Assembly (NCBI GenBank): GCA_963664405.1
Contig: OY761158.1
Coordinates: forward strand, 1,536,001-1,600,000
DNA from: Thermoanaerobaculia bacterium
GTDB taxonomy: Bacteria > Acidobacteriota > Thermoanaerobaculia > Multivoradales > Multivoraceae
Length of the DNA: 64,000 bases
Direction of reading: 5' to 3'
Shown piece by piece: positions 6,397 through 23,558 of this stretch. Each line of letters starts with the position of its first letter. Positions within the stretch are counted from its first letter, which is position 1. A program made the position numbers and the translations under genes. Under the pieces are notes generated by a model. That model saw nothing but the letters and a program-made list of their open reading frames with translations, searched no databases and was not told the origin of the DNA.

Positions 6397-7278
6397 TCAA
6401 TTTCTTGCCTCCTTCCCTTCGGTCTGCACGACCTCGAGTTGATCCTTCGGGGCGTAGAAGTAAGAACCGGGGCGAAACTCGTAGCCCAGGTCGCCGAGCA
6501 GCCGTCGTTGGCGTGGCGTGCAGCGATCCTTGACCTCGGAAACCGTCTCGAAGTCGTAGGCGCGCACGAACATCTGAGCGTAGTTGTAGAGGATGGTCTT
6601 TCTCGCCCTGCCCGAGAGATTGGGCGAAGGCCCGTGCCAGAGCGAGTGAGGAAACACAATGCAGTCGCCGGCCTTTCCTCTGAGCTGCACCGCCCCTGGC
6701 GGCCGCGCGCTCTGCCCCGGCTTCACGCTCTCCGGGAACGGCCTCAGGTGGCTGCCTGGCGAGACGGTGAAGTTCCCCATGTTGGGCTCGGGGGTGTCCG
6801 ACAGAAGGTAGAGGGCCTTCAACGCCAGCGGCCTGCTTGTCTCGGTGACCCGGACGCGACGCAGCGCTTCGCCGCCATCGGTGTGGGTATAACCCCTGAA
6901 CTCGGGATCCGAAGGGCGCACGATCGCCTGGGTCATGCTGAGGAGCAGGTAGGGGCCCATGATGTCGACGATCAGGTCGAAGACCTCCGGCCGATCCATC
7001 AGATCGATGAAAGCGGGATGAAAGGGAAGAAGGTCGCGGCGATCCATGAACCCCTCCGGATCCAGATCGAGGGCATGATCGAGCCGCGCATAGTGCCCCA
7101 GCGGGCCGTCGGGACTGGGCTCCCAACCGGGTATCTGTCGAATGCGGTCCAGCTCGGCATTGAAGAAATCGACTTCGTCGCTGGAGAGCACTCCTTCGAG
7201 GTGCAGGTAGCCGTCGATGGCCCACTTCTCGCGCTGTTCTTCACTGAGACACTTCATGCAACTCTCCTTCGCTGACAC
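6397..7278 (-). CDS. Phytanoyl-CoA dioxygenase (PhyH) family 2OG-Fe(II) oxygenase
   Basis: DGYLHLEGVL; HTD facial-triad motif; GNFTVSPGSH; AGDCIVF..LWHG...N.S...R. Confidence 0.85.
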   Translation of the reverse strand: MSAKESCMKCLSEEQREKWAIDGYLHLEGVLSSDEVDFFNAELDRIRQIPGWEPSPDGPLGHYARLDHALDLDPEGFMDRRDLLPFHPAFIDLMDRPEVFDLIVDIMGPYLLLSMTQAIVRPSDPEFRGYTHTDGGEALRRVRVTETSRPLALKALYLLSDTPEPNMGNFTVSPGSHLRPFPESVKPGQSARPPGAVQLRGKAGDCIVFPHSLWHGPSPNLSGRARKTILYNYAQMFVRAYDFETVSEVKDRCTPRQRRLLGDLGYEFRPGSYFYAPKDQLEVVQTEGKEARN

Positions 7279-7332
7279 GGTGGCTAGGCCGCGGGACTAA
7301 TCCTGCGCCCGTCAATATATCGCGAGCAAATC

Positions 7333-8382
7333 TCAGATCTGCGGCATCACCTTCTCGGCAAAGAGGCGCATCGACTCCTGTGCCGGCTCCAGGGCGAGGT
7401 CGTTGAAGTTGACCTGGAGCGACGCGATCTCGAAACCACCGACGAGATCCTGATAGGCGGCGATCTGATCGACAATGCGCTCAGGGGAGCCGACCCAGGC
7501 ACCGCCCTTCTCCACCTGGCTCTCGAAAGTCTCAGCGCTCAGCCCGGCGATGATCTTGTCGTAGCCGGGGTAGTCGGAAGAGCTGACACCGGCAGTCCAG
7601 TCGGAAGCCGCTGCAACCAGCGAGCTCAGATAGCCATTCAGTGGTTCGCGCGCGATCTCGGCGGCCTCGCGATCGGTCGCGGCGCAGAACATATGGAAGG
7701 CGAGCATCACCCGACCGTCTCCCGGGTGTCCGGCGGCTCGCCAGGCTTCGCGATAGAACCCAAGCAGTTCCCTCATCCTGCCGCCGGCAAGGGGAATGGC
7801 CATCACCGAGTGGCCCGCGCGACCCGCGTTGACGAAAGACTCGGGCGTCGCCAGAGCAGCCACCCAGAACGGCGGCCGCGGCCGTTGGGTGGGGCGCGGC
7901 AGAGAGGTCACATTCTCGAAGCTGTGGAAGCGCCCCTCCATCGATAGGTCTTCTTCTTCGAGCAGTCGACGCACCTGCTCCAGACCCTCGTCGAAGCGCG
8001 CCCGGCTCTCGTCGACACTGACCCCGAAGCGGGCGAACTCGTGGGGCAGAAAGGCGCGAGCGAAGCCGACTTCGAGCCGGCCGCCGGAGATGGCGTCGAG
8101 CATGCCGATCTCCCCCGCCAACTTGAGCGGGTGGTTGAAGACAGGCAGCACGGCGCCGGTGATCAGGCGGGCTTGGGCGGTGCGCATCGCCGCCGCGGTG
8201 AGAAAAACGATCGGGCTCGGGCTGTAGCCGCCATAGTCACGGAAGTAGTGCTCGACCGTACGAACCGAAGTGAAGCCGAGCTCGTCGACCAGATCGACGA
8301 GTTGGAGACACTCGGCGAAATAGGCCTCGCCACTCTTCCGCTCGGGGCCGACGTCGGGGAAGAACTGGATGCCGAATTCCAC
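7333..8382 (-). CDS. LLM-class (luciferase-like) flavin-dependent oxidoreductase
   Basis: ELGFTSVRTVEHYF; HPLKLAGEIGMLDAISGGRLEVGFARA; PRPTQRPRPPFWVA; SMRLFAEKVMP. Confidence 0.9.
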   Translation of the reverse strand: MEFGIQFFPDVGPERKSGEAYFAECLQLVDLVDELGFTSVRTVEHYFRDYGGYSPSPIVFLTAAAMRTAQARLITGAVLPVFNHPLKLAGEIGMLDAISGGRLEVGFARAFLPHEFARFGVSVDESRARFDEGLEQVRRLLEEEDLSMEGRFHSFENVTSLPRPTQRPRPPFWVAALATPESFVNAGRAGHSVMAIPLAGGRMRELLGFYREAWRAAGHPGDGRVMLAFHMFCAATDREAAEIAREPLNGYLSSLVAAASDWTAGVSSSDYPGYDKIIAGLSAETFESQVEKGGAWVGSPERIVDQIAAYQDLVGGFEIASLQVNFNDLALEPAQESMRLFAEKVMPQI

Positions 8383-8448: not shown

Positions 8449-8862
8449 TCAGAGGGCCAACACTCGACAGCGCAGTCCTTCGACGCGGCGAAAGTGCTCC
8501 TCTCCCTCCGGGCCGACCAGGACCCCGAAGTCGAGGCTGAGAGCCGTCGCTGCAACGGCCAGGTCGTTGGCAGGAATCAGCTGGCCGCGGCGACTGAGCT
8601 CCGCAAAGAGATCCGCCCAGCGGTCGGCAACAGAGCGGTCGAAGTCGACGATTGGACAGCGCGCCACGATGGCCTCAACGCGAGCTCGGCGCTCGGTGGC
8701 GCGGCTCTCCGTATCGGCCAGGTGTACTCCGACCATGAGCTCAGCGTACACGACCGCAGGGACTACCGCCCCCTCAGATCCCATCGTACCGAGGCCGTCC
8801 TCAAAGGAGCCCTCCGATCGCTCCAGAGCGATCAGGGCGCTGGTGTCGAGCGCGAGGCCCAC
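8449..8862 (-). CDS. vapC: PIN-domain VapC toxin
   Basis: [34 protein letters not shown] motifs; downstream of an antitoxin. Confidence 0.85.
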
Positions 8863-9116
8863 GGGTTCTCCGGCGGACGATCCGCCCGATTGACTCGCTC
8901 GAGATCGTCTGCCAGCTCGGGGTCAGGCGGCGCTGCCTCGCGCCAGGCGCGCAGCCCCTCTGCCAGGGTAGCCGAGCTGCGGGTAGGGAGTGGGGAAAGC
9001 CGGGCGATCGGTTCCCCGTTTCGCTCCACCACGAACGAATCGCCCCGGTAGCGGATGCGACCGAGAACGTCTCCGAGCTTGCGCGCAAGCTCGGTAGCGC
9101 TGATCGAAGACTCCAT
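8832..9116 (-). CDS. Phd/YefM-family antitoxin
   Basis: [36 protein letters not shown]; overlaps the PIN gene. Confidence 0.85.
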
Positions 9117-9150: not shown

Positions 9151-9209
9151 ACAACGACCAGACGGCCTCAGCGAGAGGTGCCCGCGCCGGAGAGAAGCAA
9201 GTCGGCTCG

Positions 9210-10253
9210 ATGATAGCTGCGTGTTTTACAGGCCACGGGGGGCACTGCTACTCTTCCCGACTTGCGCACCCAATTCCCCTGCGAACACCGCATGAGGACG
9301 TCGCCCTCGGAGCTCCCACCTACCGTTCCGGTACTACGACCAGGGAGCTGTGGACTTTAATGGGCTCGTGTCCTGCCAGGCCTATGAGTGCAGGCTCGCG
9401 GCGGATCAGCTTCGCCGGAGCGAGTGTGGAAATCGAGTACGAAGGGGACAGCGCAAGAGAGCTCGTTGACTTCGTCTGCGCCGAGGTCGACACCGACACT
9501 TCGGATTCTCCTGGCACAACGCTGCGCCTGACCACGACTTCTCCCGGCCAGGTTTGTCTTTCTTCTGACGGCAAGAGCATGGCGACAGGGGCTGCCGATG
9601 GACACATGGCGGCCCTCCTTATGGACCAGGTCATTGAGCGTCTCGCGCGCTCCGCGGGCAGCGGGCTCATGTTCCATGCCGCAGCTGTGGCGAGAAGAGG
9701 TAGGGGCGTAATGTTGCCTGGGCAGTCCGGCTGCGGCAAGACCACGCTCGCTGCGTGGTTGGCTGGCGGCTGTTTTGACTGTCTGACCGACGAGTTGGTC
9801 TTGTTGCCACCCGGTGAGCCGTTGGTCGCCGGACTGCCGCGCCCCCTTAAGGTCCGACGCGGCTCGTGGACGTTGTTGGGCCCCCGCACTCGCGGTTGGC
9901 CCCAGCAAAACGAGGGCCTAGTGACGCGCGATGCGCGTCTGATCCACGCGACCGCTCTGAGACCCAGCAACGCGACCGGCACGGTGCCATTGGATCTGAT
10001 CCTTTTCGCGCGCTACGACACTTCGGGAGACAACCGGTTCAGAGAGCTGACGAGTGCACAGGTGGGGTTTCGACTGATGGAGTGCCTCGTCAACGCGCGC
10101 AACCTTGCGGGTCATGGCTTCGGAGAGATCGCCCGTATCGCGCGCTCAGTGCCGGCCTACGAGGTAGGCTACAGCGAGTGCGGGCGCGTAGAAGGTGGAA
10201 TCAAGAAGCGCTTGGCTCGTCTCAGCGCTAGCAGCCCGACAACAACGGAGTAG
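9210..10253 (+). CDS. HprK-related serine kinase (HPr-rel-A / lasso-peptide-kinase-like); likely start ATG 9384 or 9360
   Basis: FHAAAV..GRGVMLPGQSGCGKTTLAAWL (Walker A), LTDELV, PRPLKV; C-terminal helix pattern typical of HprK C-domain-only kinases. Confidence 0.8.
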   Translation: MIAACFTGHGGHCYSSRLAHPIPLRTPHEDVALGAPTYRSGTTTRELWTLMGSCPARPMSAGSRRISFAGASVEIEYEGDSARELVDFVCAEVDTDTSDSPGTTLRLTTTSPGQVCLSSDGKSMATGAADGHMAALLMDQVIERLARSAGSGLMFHAAAVARRGRGVMLPGQSGCGKTTLAAWLAGGCFDCLTDELVLLPPGEPLVAGLPRPLKVRRGSWTLLGPRTRGWPQQNEGLVTRDARLIHATALRPSNATGTVPLDLILFARYDTSGDNRFRELTSAQVGFRLMECLVNARNLAGHGFGEIARIARSVPAYEVGYSECGRVEGGIKKRLARLSASSPTTTE

Positions 10254-10259
10254 TAGACC

Positions 10260-11441
10260 GTGTTTGGACTCGATTACCTGCTCTCCCCCTGTGACGGAGA
10301 AGACTTCCTGAACGACTATTGGGGTCTGAAGGCCCTATACGTGCCCGGAGAGAAGGGCAAGTTCGGGGATCTCTTCGGTTGGGAGGACATCAACCACATC
10401 ATGACCTACGGGCGGATGCGGTACCCGGACGTCAGACTGGTTCAGGAAAAGAATCATCTGCCGCAGGAGGCCCTATCGAAACTCGATCACTGGCTGACCA
10501 AGGGGGCCACGCTGGTCGTCAACTCCATTCAGAGGCTCGATCCTGTCGTCGATCGCTTTGCCTCGGCGCTGGCCAACGAGATGAACTCCCCGATCAACAT
10601 CAACTCCTATACCTCGTGGCCGGCGAAGCAGGGTTTCGACACCCACTACGATCGTCACGATGTTTTCGTGGTTCAGGTCGCCGGTTGCAAAACCTGGACG
10701 GTGGCCGCGCCAACGCATCCTTTCCCCGTCGAACAGGAGGCAGGCCGCCTCGAGCCGCCGCAGGAGCTGGACACCTACTTGGAGTGCGAGCTGAGCGAGG
10801 GAGACGTCCTATACATCCCCAGGGGTCATTGGCACTTCGCGGTGGCCAACACTCCCAGTATCCACCTCACCGTCGGCACATCGCCAAGGACGGGGGTAGA
10901 CTTCCTGACCTGGCTGGCCGAACGGCAGATGGCCCGAGACGACTTCTTTCGCCGGGATCTCCCCCTGCCACGAACCGAGGCCCTGGCGGGGAACCGCCAA
11001 GCGTCGAACCTCGAAGAGCACTGGGACGAGCTGGTGCGGCGTCTACAGAGCCTCTTTGCGGAAGCCGGACTCCGAGAGGAGTTTCTCCAATACTGCATGA
11101 CCCAGAACCGGCCTATCCACTCGCTGCAACTCCCCGAACTGGTGACTCTTCGCGAGGATCTCACCATGGAGACACCCTTCGTCATGGCTCCGGACCAGAA
11201 GGCTCTGGTCGCCTACAAGGGTGATGCGGGCTCGGCGACAGTGACAGTGCGCGGTAAGATAATCAAGTTCGAGAACCTCCCCGAAGGCCTCCTTGATGCG
11301 TTCCTCGAAATAGGGGGCAGAGTGAGCGGAGCCGATCTGCTGGCGGTCTGCCCCGACCTCGAGGTGGAACAAGTAAAGCGGTTCCTCCTCGAAATGTTCG
11401 AAAACGGTATCCTGCGTCTGGCCGAGCCTGCAGTGGGCTGA
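10260..11441 (+). CDS. JmjC/cupin_4 (ROXA/YcfD-like) 2OG-Fe(II) protein hydroxylase with C-terminal winged-helix-like domain
   Basis: FLNDYWGLKALY; QGFDTHYDRHDVFVVQVAGCKTW; LSEGDVLYIPRGHWH; SIHLTVG; C-terminal LLEMFENGIL. Confidence 0.9.
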   Translation: MFGLDYLLSPCDGEDFLNDYWGLKALYVPGEKGKFGDLFGWEDINHIMTYGRMRYPDVRLVQEKNHLPQEALSKLDHWLTKGATLVVNSIQRLDPVVDRFASALANEMNSPININSYTSWPAKQGFDTHYDRHDVFVVQVAGCKTWTVAAPTHPFPVEQEAGRLEPPQELDTYLECELSEGDVLYIPRGHWHFAVANTPSIHLTVGTSPRTGVDFLTWLAERQMARDDFFRRDLPLPRTEALAGNRQASNLEEHWDELVRRLQSLFAEAGLREEFLQYCMTQNRPIHSLQLPELVTLREDLTMETPFVMAPDQKALVAYKGDAGSATVTVRGKIIKFENLPEGLLDAFLEIGGRVSGADLLAVCPDLEVEQVKRFLLEMFENGILRLAEPAVG

Positions 11442-11493
11442 GATCCGCGCTGTTCAGATCGTTCGGCGCGCCACCGCCTCCGCGTAGGGCGGC

Positions 11494-12069
11494 TTATGTG
11501 TTGGGTAGAAAGTTGACGGTGACGACGCAGTCGAGGTAACCGGGTGCACTGAAAGTTCCGCTGACACCGGCTTGATCCGCGCCGGCGTCAGTGCCGGGCT
11601 GATATTCGACGTCCTCGAAGACGGCAAGTCCGCCGTCGTTGGTGATCGCATCCTGATCCGAGCCCCCGGGGGGGCCGAAGCCCACGTCGCTCGCGCCGAC
11701 GGCCTTGAAGTCGAGATTGACGGTCACGCCAGCGACAGGCGGGCTGACCGATGCTCGAACTACGTCGATGTCGTGATCTTCACTGAAGACGCCTACGGGC
11801 TCGTTGTGAACTCCTTCATCGAAGGGCGTCGCTTCTCGAATGAAGTCCAGCGTGTACTCACAAGACAGTGAGCCTTCCGGGCTGAATTGAGCGTGAGCCG
11901 GCAGAGAGCCGAGACCGGCCAAGGGCTCTGCCCACCTTTCGGGAACTATCTTCGAGGTTGCCACCGCGCCGCCCGAGATCGCAAGAGCCTTCAGCAGCTT
12001 GCGGCGCGCGCGGGAATGCTTCTCTTCTAACGGGGCTGGTTGGCTCTTCGGATCTCCGGTACGCGTCAT
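11494..12069 (-). CDS. Tat-signal exported protein with WxxP...LPAHAQ leader and an acidic beta-rich (Ig-like) mature domain
   Basis: GGAGGAG RBS before ATG 12069; ARRKLLK twin-arginine motif; PERWAEPLAGLGSLPAHAQFS; mature part VVRASVSPPVAGVTVNLDF...AITNDGGLAVF with two Cys. Confidence 0.75.
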   Translation of the reverse strand: MTRTGDPKSQPAPLEEKHSRARRKLLKALAISGGAVATSKIVPERWAEPLAGLGSLPAHAQFSPEGSLSCEYTLDFIREATPFDEGVHNEPVGVFSEDHDIDVVRASVSPPVAGVTVNLDFKAVGASDVGFGPPGGSDQDAITNDGGLAVFEDVEYQPGTDAGADQAGVSGTFSAPGYLDCVVTVNFLPNT

Positions 12070-12201
12070 CAACGCTCCTCCATCGACCTAAGTTTTCTCA
12101 AGTGACGAATGGATTGTAGCACGAGGTCTCGGCTCATGCCCGGTACGCGGCACTCACACGATTGTCCGGGCTGGGACGCTCCGCGATAGCATGCCATCAC
12201 C

Positions 12202-12495
12202 ATGGACGGTGCGAGTGTTCCTAAACGGAACGAGGCCCTCAAGGGTGAGCTCCTCGACGACGAGCTACTGCTCTACTACGAGAGTGAGACCCAGATCATT
12301 GCGCTGAATCCGACGGCATCCCTGGTGTGGACGCTGTGCGATGGCGAGCGAAGCTTGGCGACAATCAAAGACCTTCTCGTGGAGGCCTATCCCGATGAAG
12401 CGACTCGAATACCGATAGAGGTGACTTCGATTGTCGAGAAAATGGTGCACATCGGGGCGCTCCAACTGGAGGCCATTTCCGGCAGCGTGCCGTGA
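12202..12495 (+). CDS. Stand-alone PqqD-family RiPP recognition element (RRE)
   Basis: LDDELLLY...IIALNPTASLVWTLCDGERSLATI..LL.EAYP...EVTSIVEKMVHIGAL is the PqqD pattern; 97 aa. Confidence 0.9.
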   Translation: MDGASVPKRNEALKGELLDDELLLYYESETQIIALNPTASLVWTLCDGERSLATIKDLLVEAYPDEATRIPIEVTSIVEKMVHIGALQLEAISGSVP

Positions 12496-13046
12496 GTCGC
12501 TAAACCGAATAGACCCTGAGCCGCCAAGGCAGAGAAGCTGCCCACCACGCCCAGCTAGCGAGGGTGCTCCTACCGTGCAGAGGGAAGAGAATCTGCTTGT
12601 TGCCGGGCGCCGGCGGCACGAGGCCAAAGACTGCCAACCCGAGAGTCGGGCTTGACCTGTCGATTCCCGGAAGTGTTATTTCATCGAGGACTTCGGCCAA
12701 TCCGAGGTGTCGCTCGCGAACCTCCATCAGACGTAAAGTGAGCTCGAGTGCCACTGCACCGAGGAGCCGCAGGCCCTGCCTGTCCAGCTCATCAAAGTGC
12801 CTACGCCAACGGTGCGCCTCGCCGAAGGCCTCGATCACACGAAGCAGGTCGACGACGGATCGAAGCCGAAGCCGACCTAGCTCGAGATCTTTGATCACGG
12901 TAAGAACCTGAATCAAGAGACTGACTCTGGGCGAAGGCACCGGATAGGTCCAGTGTCTGAGATCCACGTGCTGGTGATCCCTCCAGATGGGATCCACATC
13001 GATCCGCACGCCGTACTCGCGCACGAGCCGCCAATGCTGTTACCGG

Positions 13047-13403
13047 CTACGAGAAAGCGCACTTAGTTGGCTGCGAGTCGGTTTTTTGTCCCCGCGAGGC
13101 GTGACTCAGGGTGTGGCGCAGATAGTCGAGGTACCCCTCGGGGGGTGGCGTCGTGGGGAGTTCTCGGAGGATGGGGAGAAAGTAGGCGAGGGATCGGATG
13201 GGCTGGAGCTTTGGTAGGCGCGGATCTCGGCATGCGCGTCGGGCGGAGCCGAGGAGGAGGGCGGCCTGGAGGACGGTGAGAGGCAGGTCTTGGTCGAAGA
13301 GCTGGTCGACGATGACGCGGTCGCCGTGGTGGAAGCGGTGCGGGGTGTCGGGAAGGAGTCGATAGAGGCGGAGGAGCTGGCGCCGATAGTGGCTTCGGGT
13401 CAT
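13047..13403 (-). CDS. IS-associated small hypothetical protein downstream of istB
   Basis: ATGA overlap with the istB stop; LLRLY..LPDTP...DR...LQAALLLGSARR...IRSLAYFLP; stop lies inside the terminal IR. Confidence 0.65.
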   Translation of the reverse strand: MTRSHYRRQLLRLYRLLPDTPHRFHHGDRVIVDQLFDQDLPLTVLQAALLLGSARRACRDPRLPKLQPIRSLAYFLPILRELPTTPPPEGYLDYLRHTLSHASRGQKTDSQPTKCAFS

Positions 13404-14209
13404 GAGCGTCGTCGTGCTGCGCTCCGCCTTTTGGCGCGGTCCTTGGCCTTTTTTTCAGCAGCCTCCTTGGCCTCCTTGCGGCGATAGGAGTTAGCCTCGA
13501 TCTTGACGATCTCGGCGTGGTGGGTGAGTCGATCGACGAGAGTGACGACGCAGGAGGCGTTGGGAAAGACCTCGGCCCATTCGGCGAAGGGCTTGTTGGT
13601 GGTGAGAAGAATGGGCTTGTTGCCGTATCTCCTGGAGACGACCTCGAAGAGGAGATCCGCGTGGCGGTGGTCGTAGGAGAGATAGCCGAGCTCATCGATT
13701 GCCAAAAGCGAGGGTCGGGTGTATTTGGAGAGCCTTCTCTGGAGCGCCGAGGGGGTTTCCTGGACGGCGAGATCGTTGAGCATGTCGGAGGCGGTGACGA
13801 AGCTGGCGGTGGCCCCTCGTTGCAGCGCCTGGTAGAGGAGGTTCTTGGCAATCATGGTCTTGCCGACACCGTTGGGTCCGAGGAGGATGACGTTGGTGAT
13901 GTCGTCGAGGAATTGGAGGGTGAGCAGATCCTGGATCTGCTCGCGGTCGATGCGCTGGGGCCAGGAGAAGTCGAAGTCGGCGATGCTCTTGAAGAGCCCG
14001 ACGCGGCTGGTGCGGATGCGCCGTTCGAGGCTGCGCCGTTTGCGCTCGGCCTCTTCTTTGCGCAGCAGCTGTTCGAGCCAGGGCTGTTCTCGGTAGGTGC
14101 CCCAGTCGTCGACGAGGGCGTAGAAGCCGAGGGATCGGGCGAGCTCTCGTAGTGGTTCGTCAGGGATCGTTGGACTCTTCCTGGGTCGGGCCATCGTCGT
14201 TGCCTCCAA
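13400..14209 (-). CDS. istB: IS21 helper ATPase IstB
   Basis: KSIADFDFSW; GPNGVGKT Walker A; LLAIDELGYL Walker B; LTTNKPFAEW; DRLTHHA. Confidence 0.95.
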   Translation of the reverse strand: MEATTMARPRKSPTIPDEPLRELARSLGFYALVDDWGTYREQPWLEQLLRKEEAERKRRSLERRIRTSRVGLFKSIADFDFSWPQRIDREQIQDLLTLQFLDDITNVILLGPNGVGKTMIAKNLLYQALQRGATASFVTASDMLNDLAVQETPSALQRRLSKYTRPSLLAIDELGYLSYDHRHADLLFEVVSRRYGNKPILLTTNKPFAEWAEVFPNASCVVTLVDRLTHHAEIVKIEANSYRRKEAKEAAEKKAKDRAKRRSAARRRS

Positions 14210-15668
14210 GTTGGTCGTAGTCCTCGAGGTTGTGCGGTCTCACGGAGAGATCTCGCTGTTGGAGCTCCTGGCTGAGCGGCACCGGTAAAGCCGGGGGCTG
14301 ACCGAGGCCGCGCTGGTGCCGTTCGAGTAGGAGCCGGACGGACTGGAATCGCGGTGCGTGGTTCAGGAGCGCTTCGCGCACGGCTTTGTCGAGTCGCTGG
14401 GGGCCGTACTGGCGCAGGAGTCGGAGCAGGCCGGCGGTCTGCGTTCCGAGGTTCTCGCCTCGCTCGGCGAGCTGCTGCATCAGCTCTTCGCATCGAGGCA
14501 CAGCGGAAAACAGCCGATGGAAGCCCCGGTGTCGTCGGGCCCTGCGTTTGTGAGCGAGGAGCTCCTCGAGGTGTTGAGGATCGAGGATCTGCTCGCCCCG
14601 GGAGTACGAGCGAGGGTGCTCGGCGAGGAGCTCCTGGCCATCGAGGATCCGCACCCGATGCTCGCTGGCGAGGAGCGTGACGGTCCTCTGCACATGACTG
14701 TGCGGCACCGAGTAGTCGTTGAGGTCGAAGCGCACGATCGGCGTCTTTCTGACCTTGATCTCCAGTCGCAGGTCGGTTTCAAAGTCGTCTCCGGGAAGCT
14801 CAAGCAGTCGAGGTCGTTCCTGGGCCAGGGCGCTTTTCACGGTTCGCTGTCGGTCCTGCGGCCAGGGTCTGCGCTGCGACCTCTGGCACCATTCCAGGAC
14901 CTGCCGATTCAGACGATCCAAATCGCTCACCGTTCGGGCGCCGAAGAACGAGCTTCGCAGGAAGCGGATTGCGCGCTCGACGCGGCCTTTCTCATTTCCC
15001 CGAGCCACCGCGGCGACGGTGGGAAGGAAGCCGTAGTGGCTGGCGAAATCGAGCAGCACGGGATGGAAGCGCACCGCGGTTCCCTGCCGCTCGATCACCG
15101 CGGTTCGCAGGTTGTCGTACAGAACGGTCCTGACGACGCCGTCGACGTAGTGGAAGGCCAGCTGGTGAGCGTGCAAGAAGGTTTCGAGACGAGTGTCGAG
15201 GGTGAAGTGCACGAAGACCGTGCGCGAGAACGACAGCACGAAGACGAAGGCATAGAGCCGACGATGTGCCCGGCCGACGCGGAGCCGACCGAAGTGGCCC
15301 CAGTCGACCTGCGCCTGCTCTCCTGGCAGCATGCGCAGCGAGAGAAACGCCTCGCGCTGGGGCTTCGGTCGCATCGAGGCCACCAGGTGGCGAAACTGAT
15401 CCGGGCCTCCTGGATAGCCGCGCTCCACCACCATGGTGTAGAGACGGCTCGCCGGCAGTCGTGGGTAGGTCCCGAGCACCTGCTCGATGAACGGCAGGTA
15501 AGGATCGATCATCCTCCCTCGTCGCTGCTGGGGTAGCACGCCGGACTTCTCCAGCGCCCGGCGCACGGTTGAGGGGTGCAGCTGTAGCTGTCGAGCGATC
15601 GTGCCGACTTTCCACTTCTCGACCAGGAACAGACGACGGATCTCCCCGCGCAGCTGTGCGTCGATCAC
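14160..15668 (-). CDS. istA: IS21 transposase IstA
   Basis: N-terminal HTH (TIARQLQLHPSTVRRAL); PGEQAQVDWG; LYDNLRTAV; NEKGRVER; FDLNDYSVP. Start taken at GTG 15668, just after the upstream ORF stop. Confidence 0.95.
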   Translation of the reverse strand: MIDAQLRGEIRRLFLVEKWKVGTIARQLQLHPSTVRRALEKSGVLPQQRRGRMIDPYLPFIEQVLGTYPRLPASRLYTMVVERGYPGGPDQFRHLVASMRPKPQREAFLSLRMLPGEQAQVDWGHFGRLRVGRAHRRLYAFVFVLSFSRTVFVHFTLDTRLETFLHAHQLAFHYVDGVVRTVLYDNLRTAVIERQGTAVRFHPVLLDFASHYGFLPTVAAVARGNEKGRVERAIRFLRSSFFGARTVSDLDRLNRQVLEWCQRSQRRPWPQDRQRTVKSALAQERPRLLELPGDDFETDLRLEIKVRKTPIVRFDLNDYSVPHSHVQRTVTLLASEHRVRILDGQELLAEHPRSYSRGEQILDPQHLEELLAHKRRARRHRGFHRLFSAVPRCEELMQQLAERGENLGTQTAGLLRLLRQYGPQRLDKAVREALLNHAPRFQSVRLLLERHQRGLGQPPALPVPLSQELQQRDLSVRPHNLEDYDQLGGNDDGPTQEESNDP

Positions 15669-15672
15669 GCCC

Positions 15673-16068
15673 CTATCTCCGTCGGCAACGACGAAAGCTC
15701 GTTCGCACAAACTCTCGGCAGGCCTCTCCACACTGCATGCATCGCGGATTCCTCGGGTCGTAGCGCACTTCGCGCCTCGGAGTCTCGATCCGACACAGTG
15801 TCCTCCCCGAAGTACCGCCTGGGGTACCCTGATGCGTCACTTTCTCTGCCCGCTCGCGCTGGCGCCGACGGTAGCGGGCCTGACGGGCGGCATGACAATG
15901 CCGACCTCGGAGGCTTCGCTGGTACCGATGGCCGGCCGCCCGAGTCGATTCCCGACGAGCCACCAGAGCACAAGCCCGGCAGTAACGCTGGCCACGGTCA
16001 CAGTGCGAGCACAGCGAGATACGCCGACGGCATCGAGCACAGTCGAAGAGTCGGTAGTCCGGTCGCAT
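15673..16068 (-). CDS. Cys-rich putative zinc-binding protein upstream of istA, inside the IS
   Basis: CARC, CSHCDRGQRYC..C, Arg-rich helix (HAARQARYRRRQ), KVTHQG, CMQC; stop abuts the istA start. Confidence 0.7.
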   Translation of the reverse strand: MRPDYRLFDCARCRRRISLCSHCDRGQRYCRACALVARRESTRAAGHRYQRSLRGRHCHAARQARYRRRQRERAEKVTHQGTPGGTSGRTLCRIETPRREVRYDPRNPRCMQCGEACREFVRTSFRRCRRR

Positions 16069-17041
16069 CGTCGCCTCCCATTCGACGACGACCCCGACTC
16101 TCTGCCATACTGCAAGCGCAGCTAATGCTGCGGTTTGGGGCAGAGCCCGGGGCGTTTTCTACTTCGCTTTCCCGGGCTCTCGCCGTCTCTGGTCGGCCTG
16201 CTCTATCAGAGCAGAGCCCGCACTGCAAAGCCCTACACCGACTCACGCATCTCTTCCGACCGCAAACACGCCGCCGGGACCACGCACCCGGACCGCCGTT
16301 CCGGCGGGATGATGCCGCCCTTCCTGAAGAAGGCCTAGCTTTCCCGCGGTCGCGAAGCCCTCAGCTCACTCCATCCCGGAAACTGCGCTCGCAGCCAACG
16401 GGATGCGCTTTCTCGCAGCCATCAACAAATGCAGCTCGACAGCCCATCGACCCCTGAGATACGTGAAGTGATGGGTAAAGAAACGGCTTAGCGCGCGGCC
16501 CCCAAGAGTCCGAGAGTTACTCTCGAAGCCCCCGACGCGAAGCACCTCTTCGGCGGCAGCAAATGCCTCAGAGTGGACGAGGATGTCGATATCTCCGACA
16601 GTCCTCAGGTCGAGCTCGCCGTAGAACCTGTGAGAGAAGAGAGGTCCCTTGAGGAAGAGATGATCTACCCCGCCGTCGGACAGCGCCTCGGAGATCTCTC
16701 TCATCCGAAGGAGTGCCTGAAGGGCTAGGACTCTCTGATTCCGTCGCGCCCCTTGCAGGGTCGCGCGAACGCCAGGCGGGACGTGTCTCCGGAGCCCATA
16801 CTTGCTGAGCGCCTCTCTTGCAAGCACTGCCAGACCGTGCCTGGAAAAAAAGGAGTTGAGAGCGCCCGACGAGAGACTGCTCTCCTCCAGCCGCGCCACG
16901 AAGGTTTCACGCTCACCTGCAAGTAATGGTGGGATCACCCGCCAGATCTCGCTCTCACTTGCTCCGCGAGGGCTCAGCGCGCCCCTACCGGGTGACGGAC
17001 TTTGAGCCTTTGCTAGCATCCAAGGTGCCCGCTTTCACGAC

Positions 17042-18343
17042 GTGCATAGTTCTTTTGTGTCCTCTCCGGCTTTCAGGCTGCGCTGGCTGGTGCTAGCGAT
17101 TCTACTCGTTCGCCTCGGTCCCTGGGTCTGGTTCGGCCGCGTCCAGCCCTTCACATACGACGAGAAGGAATACGACAAAATCGCGGTTCAGCTCGCCCAA
17201 AGAGGTGAGTTCGCCGTCACCCCGGGGGTTCTGACCTCGATTCGCCCTCCTCTCTACCCGGCGATGGTGGCGGGCGTCTATCGTTTGTTCGGTGTTCGCA
17301 ACTACCAGGCCGTGCGCCTGCTGCAGGTGGTATTGAACGCAGGTATCGCGGTTGTCGTCTACCTACTTGGCTACGCTCTCTACGACGCTCGCACCGGATG
17401 GTGGGCTGCAGCGCTCATAGGTTTCTACCCCTCGCTATGGGGGCACGACTACCTCCTCCTCACCGAGGTTCTTTTCACCTTTCTGCTCTGCCTAGGTACG
17501 CTGCTTCTTCTGCACTTCTTCGCACGGGAGAACTGGCCGCTACTGATCATCGGTGGCGGTCTGCTCGGCCTCGCCACTCTCACGCGAAGCGCGCTTCAGC
17601 TCTATCCGCCTCTGTTCGTCCTCATCGTCCTCGCAATGATGAAGGTCCCTGTGCCGCGCCGTTTCGTGGTGGCTGCCGTGTTCACGCTGTCCTTCGCTGT
17701 TGTCGTTGGCCCGTGGATCGCCCGCAACTCCCGCCTCCATGGCTCGCTCGCATCCGTAGATTCCACCGCCACCCGACTCTTCAAGCTCTATGGCAAGCCG
17801 CGGCTCAAAGCGATCGTGGGCAGCCCGGTGTCGACGCAAGGCTCTCGTCTGCCCGGCGGGGGATCCGCGACAACAATCCGCTGGGCGGTGAAACGGAGCT
17901 TCCTCTTCTGGCAAGTGGATAGAGAGCTGACCGGCGCGGCGGCGAGCGGCCGACTGGGTCCGATCCCACGGCAAATAGTTGTACTGCTGGCCCTTGCTAT
18001 CGGCGGCTACTATGCTGCTCTGGCCGCCCTGGGGCTCGTCGGCGCGGTTCTTCGACCCCCGCCTGACCGAATACAGCTGGTACTGATCCTTTCCTTCTTT
18101 GTGTTACTAGTGGGAGTTCACTCAATGATCCTCGGCCACTCCCGCTACCACATCCCTCTCATGCCCTTTGTCTGCCTCTTCGCGGCTCGGCTCATTGTCG
18201 TTCCGCCCCATAGAGAAGAGCGCAGACGTTTGGCGTGGGCTCTCTTGGCACTTCTCATACTCGCGGTCAGCTGGGTTATCGGCCTCGTAAGCGTAGACCT
18301 CCCCGAGCTCCTAGAGGGTCTGGGCGTCGGCCGTGAAGTCTGA
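17042..18343 (+). CDS. ArnT/PMT-like (GT39/GT83) membrane glycosyltransferase
   Basis: DEKEYDKIA; SIRPPLYP; LLTEVLF; GLATLTR; PWIARN; SRYHIPLMPF; many transmembrane helices. Confidence 0.85.
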   Translation: MHSSFVSSPAFRLRWLVLAILLVRLGPWVWFGRVQPFTYDEKEYDKIAVQLAQRGEFAVTPGVLTSIRPPLYPAMVAGVYRLFGVRNYQAVRLLQVVLNAGIAVVVYLLGYALYDARTGWWAAALIGFYPSLWGHDYLLLTEVLFTFLLCLGTLLLLHFFARENWPLLIIGGGLLGLATLTRSALQLYPPLFVLIVLAMMKVPVPRRFVVAAVFTLSFAVVVGPWIARNSRLHGSLASVDSTATRLFKLYGKPRLKAIVGSPVSTQGSRLPGGGSATTIRWAVKRSFLFWQVDRELTGAAASGRLGPIPRQIVVLLALAIGGYYAALAALGLVGAVLRPPPDRIQLVLILSFFVLLVGVHSMILGHSRYHIPLMPFVCLFAARLIVVPPHREERRRLAWALLALLILAVSWVIGLVSVDLPELLEGLGVGREV

Positions 18344-21404: not shown

Positions 21405-23558
21405 CTACAACGCGAACACCCAGATGGCGGCCCCACCTTTGGGTGAGCCTAGCCGCGGCGCGTCCGCGCCCGAGCCGAACCCTCCTAGAGCTCCGGTCAG
21501 TCCAGCGATATGAAAGTTGCCCATCCCCACCACCACCGCGACGTATTGTCTGCCCCCAACTCTGTAGGTGACGAGACTCGAGCTGGGAAAGGCGTCGAGC
21601 TTCGTCTGCCACAATAGCTCGCCGCTAGTGTCATCGAAGGCCTTCAAGGACGGCTCCATGTCGCCGGAGAAGAGCAGCCCACCAACCGTCGCAAGTAGCC
21701 CGGTCGAGGGCGGAGTGACTTGATTGTGAGTCCACGCCAACTTCCGGTTGGCGACGTCGATGGCCTGCACACGACCTACCATGCCGTCGGCGGTCTCCGG
21801 GTGCGCTCCGATCGATATCCCCACGCCGGAGGTTAGAAGCCGCAGCCCCGCCCGACCCATAGTCATACACGACTCGGTCAGCGGCACGTACGCCATCTTC
21901 GTCTGCGGACTGTAGGACGTCGGCGGCCAGCTTCTAGCCCCGAACGCGCTCGGGCATACCTCGGTGGATCTCTCAACATCTGGCATCTTGTCGGGGTCGA
22001 TAGTCTTGGCGCCGGTCACCGGATCGATGGCCGTAATGACGTTCTGTATTCCGGTATCCACCGAAAACAGATATTCGCCGGTCGCGGCATCCAACGCTTC
22101 GAGAATCGCCATCTTCCCTACATTCATCACCGCCTTGCGAGCAGTGCCGTTCACCGACACGTTCACTATCTGGCGCTCGAAGACCCAATCCAGGTCCCAT
22201 TGATCGTTCGCCATGTGCTGGTAATGCCAGACCAATGCGCCGGTCTCGGCATTGAGCGCCACGGTGCAGTTGGTATAGAGCGCGTTGTTGTTTACGCCCT
22301 CCTTCTCCGAAGGATGCAAGAGCGGACCGGTGTCGTAGGTCGGCGCCACGCCAAAATAGATCAGGTTCAACTCGGCGTCATAGGTGCCCTGATGCCAAAT
22401 GGAGCCCCCACTCCTCTTCTCCAACGCCACGTCATTCCAGCTGTTCCCATAGGGATCGCCGGGCCGAGCGATGGTGTTGAAGCGCCAGGCTTCTTCGCCT
22501 GAGTCGATATCGATCGCGACGACAAAGCCACCCCTCGGTGCAAAGCTCGCCGTCACTCCCTGGATCACCTTGTCGCCTACAGCCAACGGAGCGCTTCTGA
22601 GGTTGTATGCCCCGCGCATCAAGGGCGTCTCGGTCGTGATCTCGTGATCCCAGACCAACTCCCCCGTTTTGGCGCGCAGAGCCAGCACGTGCAGATCGGA
22701 AGTGGGAACAAGAACCTTGTCTCCATGCAGCGCCAGCCCCATCTTTTGGCTGGAGGATGATTTCGGGTGGTATTGGTAGCGCCACAGAACCTGCCCATTC
22801 GAGGCATCCAGCGCAAGCACCGTATCGGGGAAGGTGTGCAGAAACATGACCCCCTGGTGTACCAACGGCATGGCCATATTGGCACCATCGCGAAGGGGCG
22901 CACGCCAGGCGAGCGCCAGGTAACCCACGTTCTCGCGGTCGATCTGCTTCAGGGGGCTGAAGGTCTGGCCGTCGTAGGTACGGCCGCTGTGCAGCCAGTC
23001 ATCGGGGGAGGGATCGAGCCGCATCTCGGCGGTCACAGGAGGGAGCTTGTTCAACAGCTCCGAAGTGCCTGCCGCCACCACGGGCGCGTCAGGCTCGTAT
23101 TCCGCGCCCTCCAGCTTCGGAATCGTCAGCTCGCTGAGGCCCTCCAGATCCGACGGCAGGACCTCGTCGCCGGCCTCGAGACCGTTGGACTCGAAAATGA
23201 ACGCCAGGATGTTGACGTAGACCTCATCGCCCAACCCACCAGGCGCGTCGATCGGCTCCGGCGGCATGCGACTAAGATGGAAGGCGAGCACTCCGGCGGA
23301 CTTCCCCCGCCACGACGTGTCGAAACGCGAACCCACGAGAGAAGGCGACACCTGCTCCCCCTGCAAGCGCGGCCCGTGACACGAGGCGCAATGCTCCCGA
23401 TAGCTCGCTCTGCCCTCGGCGACCTGGTCCGCCGTAAAGCTCGGCGTCTTCGCCAAGCTTGCTGACTGCCACGGACTCACCGCTATAAACAGCAGCCACG
23501 GGCATCCGGCTCGCCGTAGAAATGCCATCACTGAATTCCTCGCTTTTCGCCGATTCAT
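21405..23558 (-). CDS. PQQ-dependent dehydrogenase with N-terminal cytochrome c domain
   Basis: CASCHG heme motif after the signal peptide; DWLHSGR...FSPLKQI; ALDASNGQVLW; WHYQHMANDQWDLD; GGRQYVAV. Confidence 0.9.
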   Translation of the reverse strand: MNRRKARNSVMAFLRRAGCPWLLFIAVSPWQSASLAKTPSFTADQVAEGRASYREHCASCHGPRLQGEQVSPSLVGSRFDTSWRGKSAGVLAFHLSRMPPEPIDAPGGLGDEVYVNILAFIFESNGLEAGDEVLPSDLEGLSELTIPKLEGAEYEPDAPVVAAGTSELLNKLPPVTAEMRLDPSPDDWLHSGRTYDGQTFSPLKQIDRENVGYLALAWRAPLRDGANMAMPLVHQGVMFLHTFPDTVLALDASNGQVLWRYQYHPKSSSSQKMGLALHGDKVLVPTSDLHVLALRAKTGELVWDHEITTETPLMRGAYNLRSAPLAVGDKVIQGVTASFAPRGGFVVAIDIDSGEEAWRFNTIARPGDPYGNSWNDVALEKRSGGSIWHQGTYDAELNLIYFGVAPTYDTGPLLHPSEKEGVNNNALYTNCTVALNAETGALVWHYQHMANDQWDLDWVFERQIVNVSVNGTARKAVMNVGKMAILEALDAATGEYLFSVDTGIQNVITAIDPVTGAKTIDPDKMPDVERSTEVCPSAFGARSWPPTSYSPQTKMAYVPLTESCMTMGRAGLRLLTSGVGISIGAHPETADGMVGRVQAIDVANRKLAWTHNQVTPPSTGLLATVGGLLFSGDMEPSLKAFDDTSGELLWQTKLDAFPSSSLVTYRVGGRQYVAVVVGMGNFHIAGLTGALGGFGSGADAPRLGSPKGGAAIWVFAL

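Follow-up and report, generated by a model that had tools for sequence, protein, structure and literature searches.

A conserved twin-arginine leader carrying a candidate RRE docking motif, and its linkage to genes for a PqqD-type RRE, an HprK-like kinase and a nucleotidyltransferase

The stretch of DNA analyzed here (hereafter the window; 64,000 nucleotides of contig OY761158.1, GenBank assembly GCA_963664405.1, from a Thermoanaerobaculia bacterium) carries on its minus strand a gene, P0001 (11494..12069), for a 191-aa precursor protein in which a leader of the twin-arginine translocation (Tat) type precedes an acidic, Ig-like β-sandwich cargo. The gene call rests on the open reading frame (ORF), a Shine–Dalgarno sequence, homologues and an AlphaFold2 model; within the minus-strand ORF 11494..12072, the probable start is the ATG at 12069, with GGAGG 7 nt ahead of it. 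Head-to-head with this gene, across a divergent intergenic region of 129 bp (12073..12201), lies a plus-strand gene (12202..12495) for a discrete recognition element (RRE) of the kind known from peptides that are made on ribosomes and modified after translation (RiPPs). An initial annotation, made from the sequence alone, had reported this arrangement with a spacing of about 130 bp, which agrees with our measurement. A scan of positions 11300–12600 returned no sigma-70-type consensus sites. The question addressed below is how the precursor relates to the RRE and to the kinase and nucleotidyltransferase genes encoded nearby.

The N-terminus of the precursor is a twin-arginine leader, RRKLLK...PERWAEPLAGLGSLPAHA, followed by a predicted cleavage site and then QFS. 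Its layout is that of a Tat signal, with R22-R23-K-L-L-K, an h-region (ALAISGGAVATSKIV) and A58-H-A60, and the twin arginines, the h-region and the AxA site are thus all present. The leader core, from R22R23 to A60 (RRKLLKALAISGGAVATSKIVPERWAEPLAGLGSLPAHA; 11890..12006, minus strand; genome positions 1547890-1548006), was delimited by a strict-pattern match and by the conservation profile. It contains the Tat motif, the h-region, an RRE-type motif noted as W46-x-x-P49-x-L and the AHA cleavage site. In window letters the RRE-type motif is W46-A-E-P49-L-A, ahead of AHA and Q-F-S63. The N-terminus ends in ...KHSRARRKLLKALAISGGAVATSKIVPERWAEPLAGLGSLPAHA before QFS, identical to the wording of the initial annotation, whose quoted W-A-E-P ahead of AHA and QFS is what the sequence reads. 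The first three residues past the predicted cleavage, Q61-F62-S63 (11881..11889, minus strand), place S63 at a position that we call 'Ser3', on the basis of the alignment and of an analogy with the linear polyphosphorylated peptides (LPPs) discussed below; by the same analogy, S63 is the proposed phospho-acceptor. The strict pattern, RR.{15,30}W..P.{5,8}LPAHA, had been suggested in the initial annotation as a search; across all six translated frames of the 6.78-Mb genome it has a single match, the precursor gene.

The leader defines a protein family of its own. A word-based homology search returned two relatives that have the leader in common with the precursor but not the mature part, and an exhaustive HMMER search extended the family to 718 representative clusters (50% identity) at E ≤ 0.001. 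The family is described here from the best 150 of the 718 clusters, which make up 152 proteins together with the two word-search relatives. About 35 of those best 150 are full-length homologues, and most of the others match only query residues ~10–70. The pattern RR.{8,30}W..P.{3,14}P..A is fitted by 145 of the 152 proteins, and the recurrence of the motif, as judged from these sequences, is far beyond chance. Alignment of 144 representatives on W..P.{7}P.HA gave the consensus R-R-x-L-L-K-x-L-A-A-x-G-G-A-x-A-A-x-x-x-L-P-x-x-W-x-K-P-V-V-x-x-G-x-L-P-A-H-A-Q-x-[S/T]. Among these 144, the position five residues after the tryptophan is V, I, L or A in 139, the first residue after AHA is Q in 131, and the third is S or T in 142; the H and A of the site are kept in at least 144 of the 152 proteins. 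In the leader ORFs at the loci described below, the third residue is Ser in 57 and Thr in 34, i.e., in 91 of 91, at a position that lies outside the search pattern.

Past the cleavage site the proteins diverge. Cargo length in the leader ORFs at loci has a median of 136 aa and a maximum of 308, and the cargoes vary, with a VWA domain in one protein (P0064). Pfam and NCBIfam hold no model for the leader family; of 11 leader proteins scanned against the generic Tat model TIGR01409, 5 exceed its cut-off of 16.7 bits. Arrays of leader genes also occur, in which the cargoes differ. Seven lie within 10 kb of one gammaproteobacterial contig (L035, 9845–19450), five surround a PqqD–kinase pair on an Arenicellales contig (L071, 9887–18572), and one relative of the window genome (G006) has 12 dispersed copies.

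The RRE encoded opposite the precursor is a 97-aa protein that matches PF05402 at 41.6 bits (cut-off 23.4). Models of the pyrroloquinoline quinone (PQQ) pathway score below their cut-offs (TIGR03859, 32.9 against 46; NF002535, 25.6 against 101), and among the ORFs scanned from 395 to 34116 no pqq genes (pqqA, B, C or E) adjoin the RRE gene; we therefore rejected identification of the protein as the PqqD of that pathway. A PQQ-dependent dehydrogenase with a cytochrome c domain is encoded at 21405–23558, 9 kb from the RRE gene, and is probably unrelated to it, because the RRE is not a PQQ-pathway PqqD. In a profile built from the window RRE and the 24 homologues that align with it (A3), the matches are TbiB1 (36 bits), PqqD, 9x8z_B, a 'PqqD family protein' (32 bits), TfuB1 and 9x90_B, the nearest being the lasso-peptide B1 proteins TbiB1, TfuB1 and 9x8z_B. 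Such domains are rare in this genome: PF05402 has three matches in the whole 6.78 Mb, the other two at 5.85 and 6.12 Mb, and simple arithmetic indicates that a random 20-kb window would contain one ~1% of the time.

On the plus strand at 9210..10253 lies a gene for an HprK-like P-loop kinase with a probable start near 9384; its homologues are ~280 aa long, and the window protein covers positions 3–280 of 282 in the family profile (A5). It matches TIGR04352 and TIGR04355 in part, the former at 78 bits against a cut-off of 200, and its best matches in the PDB are HPr(Ser) kinases, at a weak E value of 6e-4. Upstream of the kinase gene is a type II toxin–antitoxin pair, in which a gene for a PIN-domain protein (8449–8862, minus strand) overlaps one for a weakly matching Phd/YefM-like antitoxin (8832–9116, minus strand).

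Downstream of the RRE gene, the gene for a nucleotidyltransferase of the NTP_transf_5 family (PF14907) is split on the minus strand into a C-terminal fragment (12500..13024, profile positions 153–248) and an N-terminal fragment (16428..17019, 95.3 bits, positions 13–146), the listed ORF of the latter running to 16366 inside an insertion sequence (IS). The IS is a 3390-bp element of the IS21 family (13038..16427, minus strand) with istA at 14160–15731, istB at 13400–14209 and a third ORF at 13047–13403, assigned from the Pfam domains IstB and rve. It is bounded by terminal inverted repeats of 40 nt (13038–13077 and 16388–16427) and has AATGC on both flanks. The 6.78-Mb genome holds 22 near-full-length copies at ≥99.9% identity, plus fragments; the element is in active expansion, and this near-identity dates the insertion in the window as recent. 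The enzyme set of the window is consequently incomplete. Contigs from four runs offered no junction across the IS that would represent an IS-free form of the gene, the uncovered parts being uninformative on this point.

Linkage between leader and enzymes was examined using a degenerate DNA pattern for P..W..P......LPAHAQ, which covers the leader only, in one genome per species (GTDB set). The scan returned at least 126 stretches, of which 80 loci were fetched, and all locus counts rest on these. Removal of duplicates (L021, L036, L037 and L048) left 76 loci from 57 assemblies, with L070 and L082 still overlapping in part, and a recognizable leader ORF was found in 68 of the 76. When these 68 leader loci were searched by phmmer with the window's neighboring proteins, the kinase was found in 21 (E 1e-17 to 1e-54), PqqD in 17 and NTP_transf_5 in 15; none of the eight loci lacking a leader ORF held any of these cassette genes. 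Blind all-against-all clustering of 4435 ORFs returned the same three families as the most frequent after the leader itself, again with the kinase at 21 loci, PqqD at 17 and NTP_transf_5 at 15, followed by a generic ATP-binding cassette (ABC) ATPase at 10.

At 18 of the 21 cassette loci, no more than 400 bp separates the leader gene from a cassette gene, and NTP_transf_5 is intact in 15 of the 21. The genes mostly form one operon, with the typical order on one strand being leader–nucleotidyltransferase–PqqD–kinase or leader–PqqD–kinase–nucleotidyltransferase, unlike that of the window. Judged by record title, the hosts belong to Chloroflexota, Desulfobacterota (two of the records being of cable bacteria), Lentisphaerae, Verrucomicrobia and Gammaproteobacteria, and the linkage spans at least five phyla. 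In one relative of the window genome (G008), a 36%-identical, full-length homologue of the precursor is accompanied by NTP_transf_5, PqqD, the kinase, two sulfotransferase-like genes and JmjC_2; the gene order differs from that of the window, and NTP_transf_5 is intact. The G008 sulfotransferases have no homologues in the 76 loci.

Co-occurrence at the level of whole genomes points in the same direction. Among 61 relatives, the leader protein is present in three (G000, G008 and G006, the last with its 12 copies), and these three give the three best matches to TIGR04352, the sole top matches that cover most of the profile. In a phylum sample of 301 genomes, robust leader matches (E ≤ 1e-10) were found in seven, and two further weak matches cover just the first 24–37 profile positions. 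The six best kinase matches of the sample (E ≤ 1e-33) all fall within the seven leader genomes, and the seventh of these (G051) has a weaker PqqD–kinase pair. Furthermore, five genomes whose leader loci lacked the cassette were searched whole, and all five have a full-length kinase (E 6e-23 to 9e-47) beside PqqD elsewhere; NTP_transf_5 is also present at four of the six kinase–PqqD loci concerned, where flanks of ~1.5 kb were available.

The initial annotation had proposed a complex prediction as a check on binding of the leader by PqqD. The RRE (alignment of 25 sequences) and leader residues 16–68 (alignment of 110) were folded together from alignments that we had assembled. The pair scored 0.42, against 0.00 for the best of three controls, a result graded 'weak support'. 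Of 157 solved complexes, 116 reach the pass mark, as do 2 of 215 mismatched pairs; at scores of 0.60 or below, the passes comprise just 18 of the 157 solved complexes together with both of these mismatches. At least 89% of contacts are shared between runs, and the predicted local distance difference test (pLDDT) value of the partner is at least 61. The prediction of a complex thus passed, albeit weakly.

The cargo domain (approximately residues 64–191; 11497..11880, minus strand) is delimited by the AlphaFold2 model and by cysteine covariation. With 35 homologues, residues 65–191 were modeled as all-β, with a mean pLDDT of 81.2, domain blocks at 84–98 and the mature part at about 90, and the leader was of low confidence. 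The mature part has 22 Asp and Glu against 3 Lys and Arg in 131 residues, in line with its earlier description as acidic and β-rich. In the 35 full-length homologues, C70 and C181 covary (both in 16, neither in 17, the second alone in 2); this pair probably forms a disulfide that joins the first and last strands, as had been suggested from the cysteines near both ends. Foldseek matched the cargo model to generic Ig-like sandwiches in the PDB (RhoGDI, pilins, MSP and adhesin domains) at TM-scores of at most 0.37 on the query, and assignment to a specific fold family was therefore rejected. A PDB sequence search with P0001 returned nothing meaningful, and the ESM Atlas search gave a best score of 0.88, under the 0.9 level, with transthyretin- or CarboxypepD_reg-like domains and 'Tat signal' as unconfirmed leads.

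Near-identical metatranscriptome contigs lie on the precursor gene at 11653–12065 (one difference), 11689–11911 and 11895–12081 (no differences), from two runs of one study. Within 9200–17100 outside the IS, the precursor gene is the only one so covered, with the kinase, JmjC and RRE genes uncovered. Such contigs show neither strand nor level, RNA libraries can contain DNA, and the runs were picked via this stretch; we take the contigs as a hint that the precursor gene is transcribed.

Several genes around the cassettes point, by their domain content, to glycosylation. The kinase is fused to a family 2 glycosyltransferase (GT2) in L024, L061 and L071, and, in L032 and L085, to a fucose pyrophosphorylase and a GHMP kinase. 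In G081 and G326, what separates the leader gene from the cassette is a gene for a 1250-aa protein with GT28/GT1-like, DXD, GT2 and Anp1 domains; the loci of this type are L146 (8290–12060), L147 (6312–10040) and L148 (6337–10107), and in L148 (genome G189) the call rests on an ORF of equal size and place, the Pfam domain content being known for G081 and G326 only. Among the 83 ORFs scanned, of 106 candidates around the 21 cassettes, are GlcNAc-type transferases (L057 and L083), a sulfotransferase (L071), a PMT_2 protein (L076) and a glutamine cyclotransferase (L024). The last, in a cable-bacterium record (6775–7611), adjoins the kinase–GT2 fusion and the leader gene at this one of the 21 cassette loci, and would fit formation of pyroglutamate on the conserved Gln at +1 after AHA.

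In the window itself, a PMT_2 (GT-C type) membrane glycosyltransferase (PF13231) is encoded at 17042..18343 on the plus strand. It is a possible accessory gene, the weak link being its presence at only two loci, the window and L076, where PMT_2 abuts NTP_transf_5. A JmjC_2 (cupin) oxygenase gene (10260..11441, plus strand; PF08007, 91.8 bits) is convergent with the precursor gene, and a GC-rich hairpin, CCGCC...GGCGG, at 11474–11492 between the two stops may be their shared terminator. We rejected JmjC_2 as a core component because there are no homologues in the 76 other loci; found only in the window and G008, it is taken, from this distribution, as a lineage-specific accessory. At L057 (4633–8142), the protein encoded between cassette and leader gene has 1169 aa, in which a hydroxyproline O-arabinosyltransferase-like domain is fused to a GlcNAc-type transferase and a 2OG-Fe(II) oxygenase; it may be a counterpart of the JmjC step in the window, with hydroxylation followed by glycosylation.

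The initial annotation had set the locus in a lasso-peptide context with a missing B2 peptidase. Pfam scans of ORFs 395–34116, to which they were limited, contain neither a lasso cyclase nor a B2 peptidase, so that the framing falls away and the cyclase-less LPP clusters are the right comparison. Candidates for leader removal and export were also sought. The genome has no match to the SipW-type peptidase model TIGR02228, and it encodes one TatC elsewhere, and three LepB-type peptidases that are all distant from the window. Neither an S24/S26 peptidase nor an MsbA-like exporter is found among the 83 ORFs flanking the 21 cassettes, where the only ABC ATPases are two of a different type; no MsbA-like exporter is encoded in the window locus (ORFs 395–34116), and blind neighbor clustering returned no peptidase or exporter recurring beside the cassette.

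Based on these findings, we consider it reasonably probable, from sequence comparison and analogy, that the precursor is a substrate of the neighboring RRE, HprK-like kinase and nucleotidyltransferase, and that its N-terminus acts both as a Tat signal and as an RRE docking motif, with cleavage by a LepB-type peptidase and export through Tat. What we observed directly is the conserved motif, the linkage of the genes and their co-occurrence; the course of events we propose is as follows. In the cytoplasm, the PqqD-type RRE would bind the W..P.V stretch and present the chain to the kinase, which would phosphorylate Ser63, the third residue past the cleavage site. In intact systems NTP_transf_5, often with fused or neighboring glycosyltransferases, would extend the phosphate. 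The modified, folded Ig-like domain would then exit via Tat, and a housekeeping signal peptidase I would cut after AHA, so that in this proposal a dedicated leader peptidase and an ABC exporter would be unneeded. In the window genome, the nucleotidyltransferase step would have been knocked out by the IS. The earlier suggestion of a dual export signal and RiPP leader, with signal peptidase in place of the leader protease, thereby gains in silico support from the linkage across phyla, the fit of W..P.V to a published motif, the lack of a linked peptidase at the loci scanned and the Bacillota analogue, and loses its lasso context.

Several observations weigh against this interpretation. The initial annotation had named as contrary evidence a motif that occurs mostly in loci or genomes without PqqD. 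At 47 of the 68 leader loci, the DNA fetched, some of it with short flanks, contains no cassette; the genomes tested all hold such a cassette, and the annotation's own test left the proposal unrefuted. In G006, only one of the 12 leader genes is within ~5 kb of a PqqD match, which is itself weak. The phylum sample has 15 kinase-positive genomes, nine of which (E 1e-21 to 1e-31) lack a leader match, which means that this broad kinase type also operates in other settings. One genus (g63) supplies three of the positive genomes, and because the genomes are partly kin, the co-occurrence counts overstate their independence. The window precursor has no TIGR01409 match at E ≤ 0.01. The predicted complex is a weak pass that may reflect its likeness to RRE–leader complexes already solved. 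About one third of the leaders carry Thr at +3, unlike the Ser3 phosphorylated in LPPs. Finally, the nucleotidyltransferase of the window is broken, and the local system may be decaying.

The least probable of the alternatives, which we regard as very improbable, is that the precursor is an ordinary Tat-exported protein that has come to lie beside pqqD by chance, in a rearranged region ridden with ISs. Such a coincidence would be in keeping with the active IS and its 22 near-identical full-length copies, with a gene order that departs from the usual operon and with a PQQ-dependent dehydrogenase 9 kb away. The same linkage nevertheless recurs at 21 loci in at least five phyla, co-occurrence holds in every leader-bearing genome tested, and PF05402 is rare enough (three in 6.78 Mb, ~1% of random 20-kb windows) to make a chance neighbor unusual; the differing gene orders and phyla also argue against near-copies of one mobile island. 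A different objection concerns where the RRE docks. The cassette might act on the precursors with the RRE bound elsewhere, to the n- or h-region or off the leader, leaving W..P...LPAHAQxS as a site for the kinase or transferase, for sorting or for a cleavage factor. The whole 45-residue leader is conserved, beyond W..P, the complex prediction is a weak pass given without contacts, and the kinase has an N-terminal domain of ~90 residues with no assigned role. We judge this version unlikely all the same: the stretch fits the published RRE motif in residues and spacing, W or Y being followed by P at +3, by an aliphatic residue at +5 and by the modified Ser 17–18 residues on (PMC13381572), and the RRE profile is nearest to the lasso B1 proteins that bind this motif (TbiB1, TfuB1 and 9x8z_B).

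A comparably small chance attaches to the view that the N-terminus is a RiPP-type leader merely resembling a Tat signal, with another route of release or export and with AHA/Q cut by an unlinked dedicated protease. Not only does the window precursor miss TIGR01409, but 6 of the 11 relatives scanned fall under its cut-off. Moreover, P-A-H-A-Q is conserved far more than a signal-peptidase site needs, which would suggest recognition by something more specific, and the leader peptidase of LPPs is dedicated and RRE-dependent (PMC13381572). On the other hand, RRxLLK followed by a Gly/Ala/Ser-rich h-region is the Tat pattern, and the remaining five of those relatives pass the Tat model. In addition, no peptidase or exporter recurs beside the cassette, either in the neighbor clustering or among the 83 flanking ORFs. 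The folded cargoes of extracytoplasmic type, such as the Ig-like domain with its covarying cysteine pair and the VWA domain, need export, and Tat is the route that accepts folded proteins. We therefore retain the combined Tat signal and docking leader as the preferred interpretation of the precursor.

A broader formulation is tentative, and we hold it at somewhat less than even confidence. Co-option may have turned Tat signals into RiPP-style leaders of whole proteins, with a discrete RRE docked on an extended c-region as a Tat 'proofreading' adaptor. It would keep the precursor in the cytoplasm until kinase, nucleotidyltransferase and glycosyltransferases have built a phospho(glyco)syl group on residue 3 of the later mature N-terminus, and Tat and the housekeeping signal peptidase would replace a dedicated exporter and peptidase. 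If so, exported proteins would be phosphoglycosylated at the N-terminus by a route that crosses phyla, in which one enzyme set serves many dispersed, hypervariable cargo genes, as in some RiPP families. Leader-guided modification through RREs is known for peptides; here it is apparently extended, by way of an export signal, to folded exported proteins. Were the proposal for the precursor correct, it would account for a large set of Tat proteins (718 clusters) that are at present unannotated and 'hypothetical', and LPP chemistry would reach beyond Bacillota to Chloroflexota, Desulfobacterota (cable bacteria among them), Gammaproteobacteria, Verrucomicrobia and Lentisphaerae. The proposal would also supply a simple substrate rule for genome-wide searches, RR...W..P.V...LPAHAQx[S/T], and a testable case in which cytoplasmic modification is coupled to Tat export.

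A literature search for RRE or PqqD together with twin-arginine returned nothing relevant, and the known systems that come closest each share part of the arrangement. Redox enzyme maturation proteins such as TorD and DmsD are all-helical cytoplasmic chaperones that bind Tat signals and supervise cofactor insertion. In the present case as well, a protein of the cytoplasm would bind a substrate's twin-arginine leader, the substrate having to be finished there before export, but the binder would be a winged-helix RRE guiding a covalent modification. The 'HprK-related kinase A' of TIGR04352 and the SynChlorMet proteins ScmC and ScmD likewise place an HprK-like P-loop kinase beside a PqqD-family protein. 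The window kinase belongs to a different subfamily, given its 78 bits against the TIGR04352 cut-off of 200 and ScmC/ScmD scores far under their cut-offs. A looser precedent for secretion-signal precursors with RREs is offered by DUF2063-type RREs, whose DUF2282 precursors bear Sec signal peptides and for which, in the material cited, no specific RRE motif is predicted (PMC12710340); the signal there is Sec rather than Tat, and the enzymes are others.

Phosphorylated lasso peptides come nearer. In paeninodin and pseudomycoidin, an HPr-kinase homologue phosphorylates a Ser of the precursor and a nucleotidyltransferase adds hexoses to the phosphate (PMC8498205). Shared with the present system are the kinase, the nucleotidyltransferase and a PqqD-type B1 protein that binds a Y/WxxP leader, and sulfotransferases lie nearby, as they do in G008. 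The cyclase and B2 peptidase were not found at our locus within the ORFs scanned, and the modified residue is a C-terminal Ser there, versus a Ser or Thr at +3 of the mature N-terminus here.

The closest relatives are the LPP clusters, described from Bacillota (Popov et al., Nat Commun 2026, PMC13381572). These clusters combine a discrete PqqD-type RRE, an HprK-like kinase and an uncharacterized NTP transferase, with no lasso cyclase, and add an archaeal-type (SipW-like) signal peptidase I as dedicated leader peptidase and an MsbA-like export pump (PMC13381572). The precursors, of 35–200 aa, have a conserved N-terminus, YxxPxVLxHQxIxFETxxS, and variable C-termini; the kinase places up to four phosphates on core Ser3, an S3T variant stays unphosphorylated, and the signal-peptidase homologue cuts the leader only upon presentation by the RRE (PMC13381572). 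The motif of discrete lasso-type RREs is given as [Y/W]xxPx[L/V/I/A/F/Y], Y versus W in the LPP motif sets RRE specificity, and the authors term LPPs and paeninodins Bacillota-restricted (PMC13381572).

The present system has in common with those clusters the cyclase-less trio of RRE, HprK-like kinase and NTP transferase (the last being split in the window), the aromatic residue, P at +3 and aliphatic residue at +5 of the motif, a conserved N-terminus ahead of a variable C-terminus, and frequent glycosyltransferase neighbors. The conserved Ser or Thr stands 17 residues after W here and 18 after Y in LPPs, and is the third residue past the cleavage site in both. Leader removal of the signal-peptidase type is shared as well, shown for LPPs and proposed here. 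The two differ in that the docking motif here would be the c-region of a Tat signal peptide and has W, not Y; that a SipW-like peptidase and an MsbA-like exporter are not linked to the cassettes scanned here; that the cargoes are whole folded domains of ~100–300 aa; and that the hosts are Chloroflexota, Desulfobacterota, Gammaproteobacteria, Verrucomicrobia and Lentisphaerae rather than Bacillota, many genomes having several dispersed precursor genes (12 in G006, seven in the L035 array). Because the linked SipW-like peptidase and MsbA-like pump characteristic of LPP clusters are lacking at the loci scanned, we file the window system as an LPP-like variant and not as a member of the LPP class.

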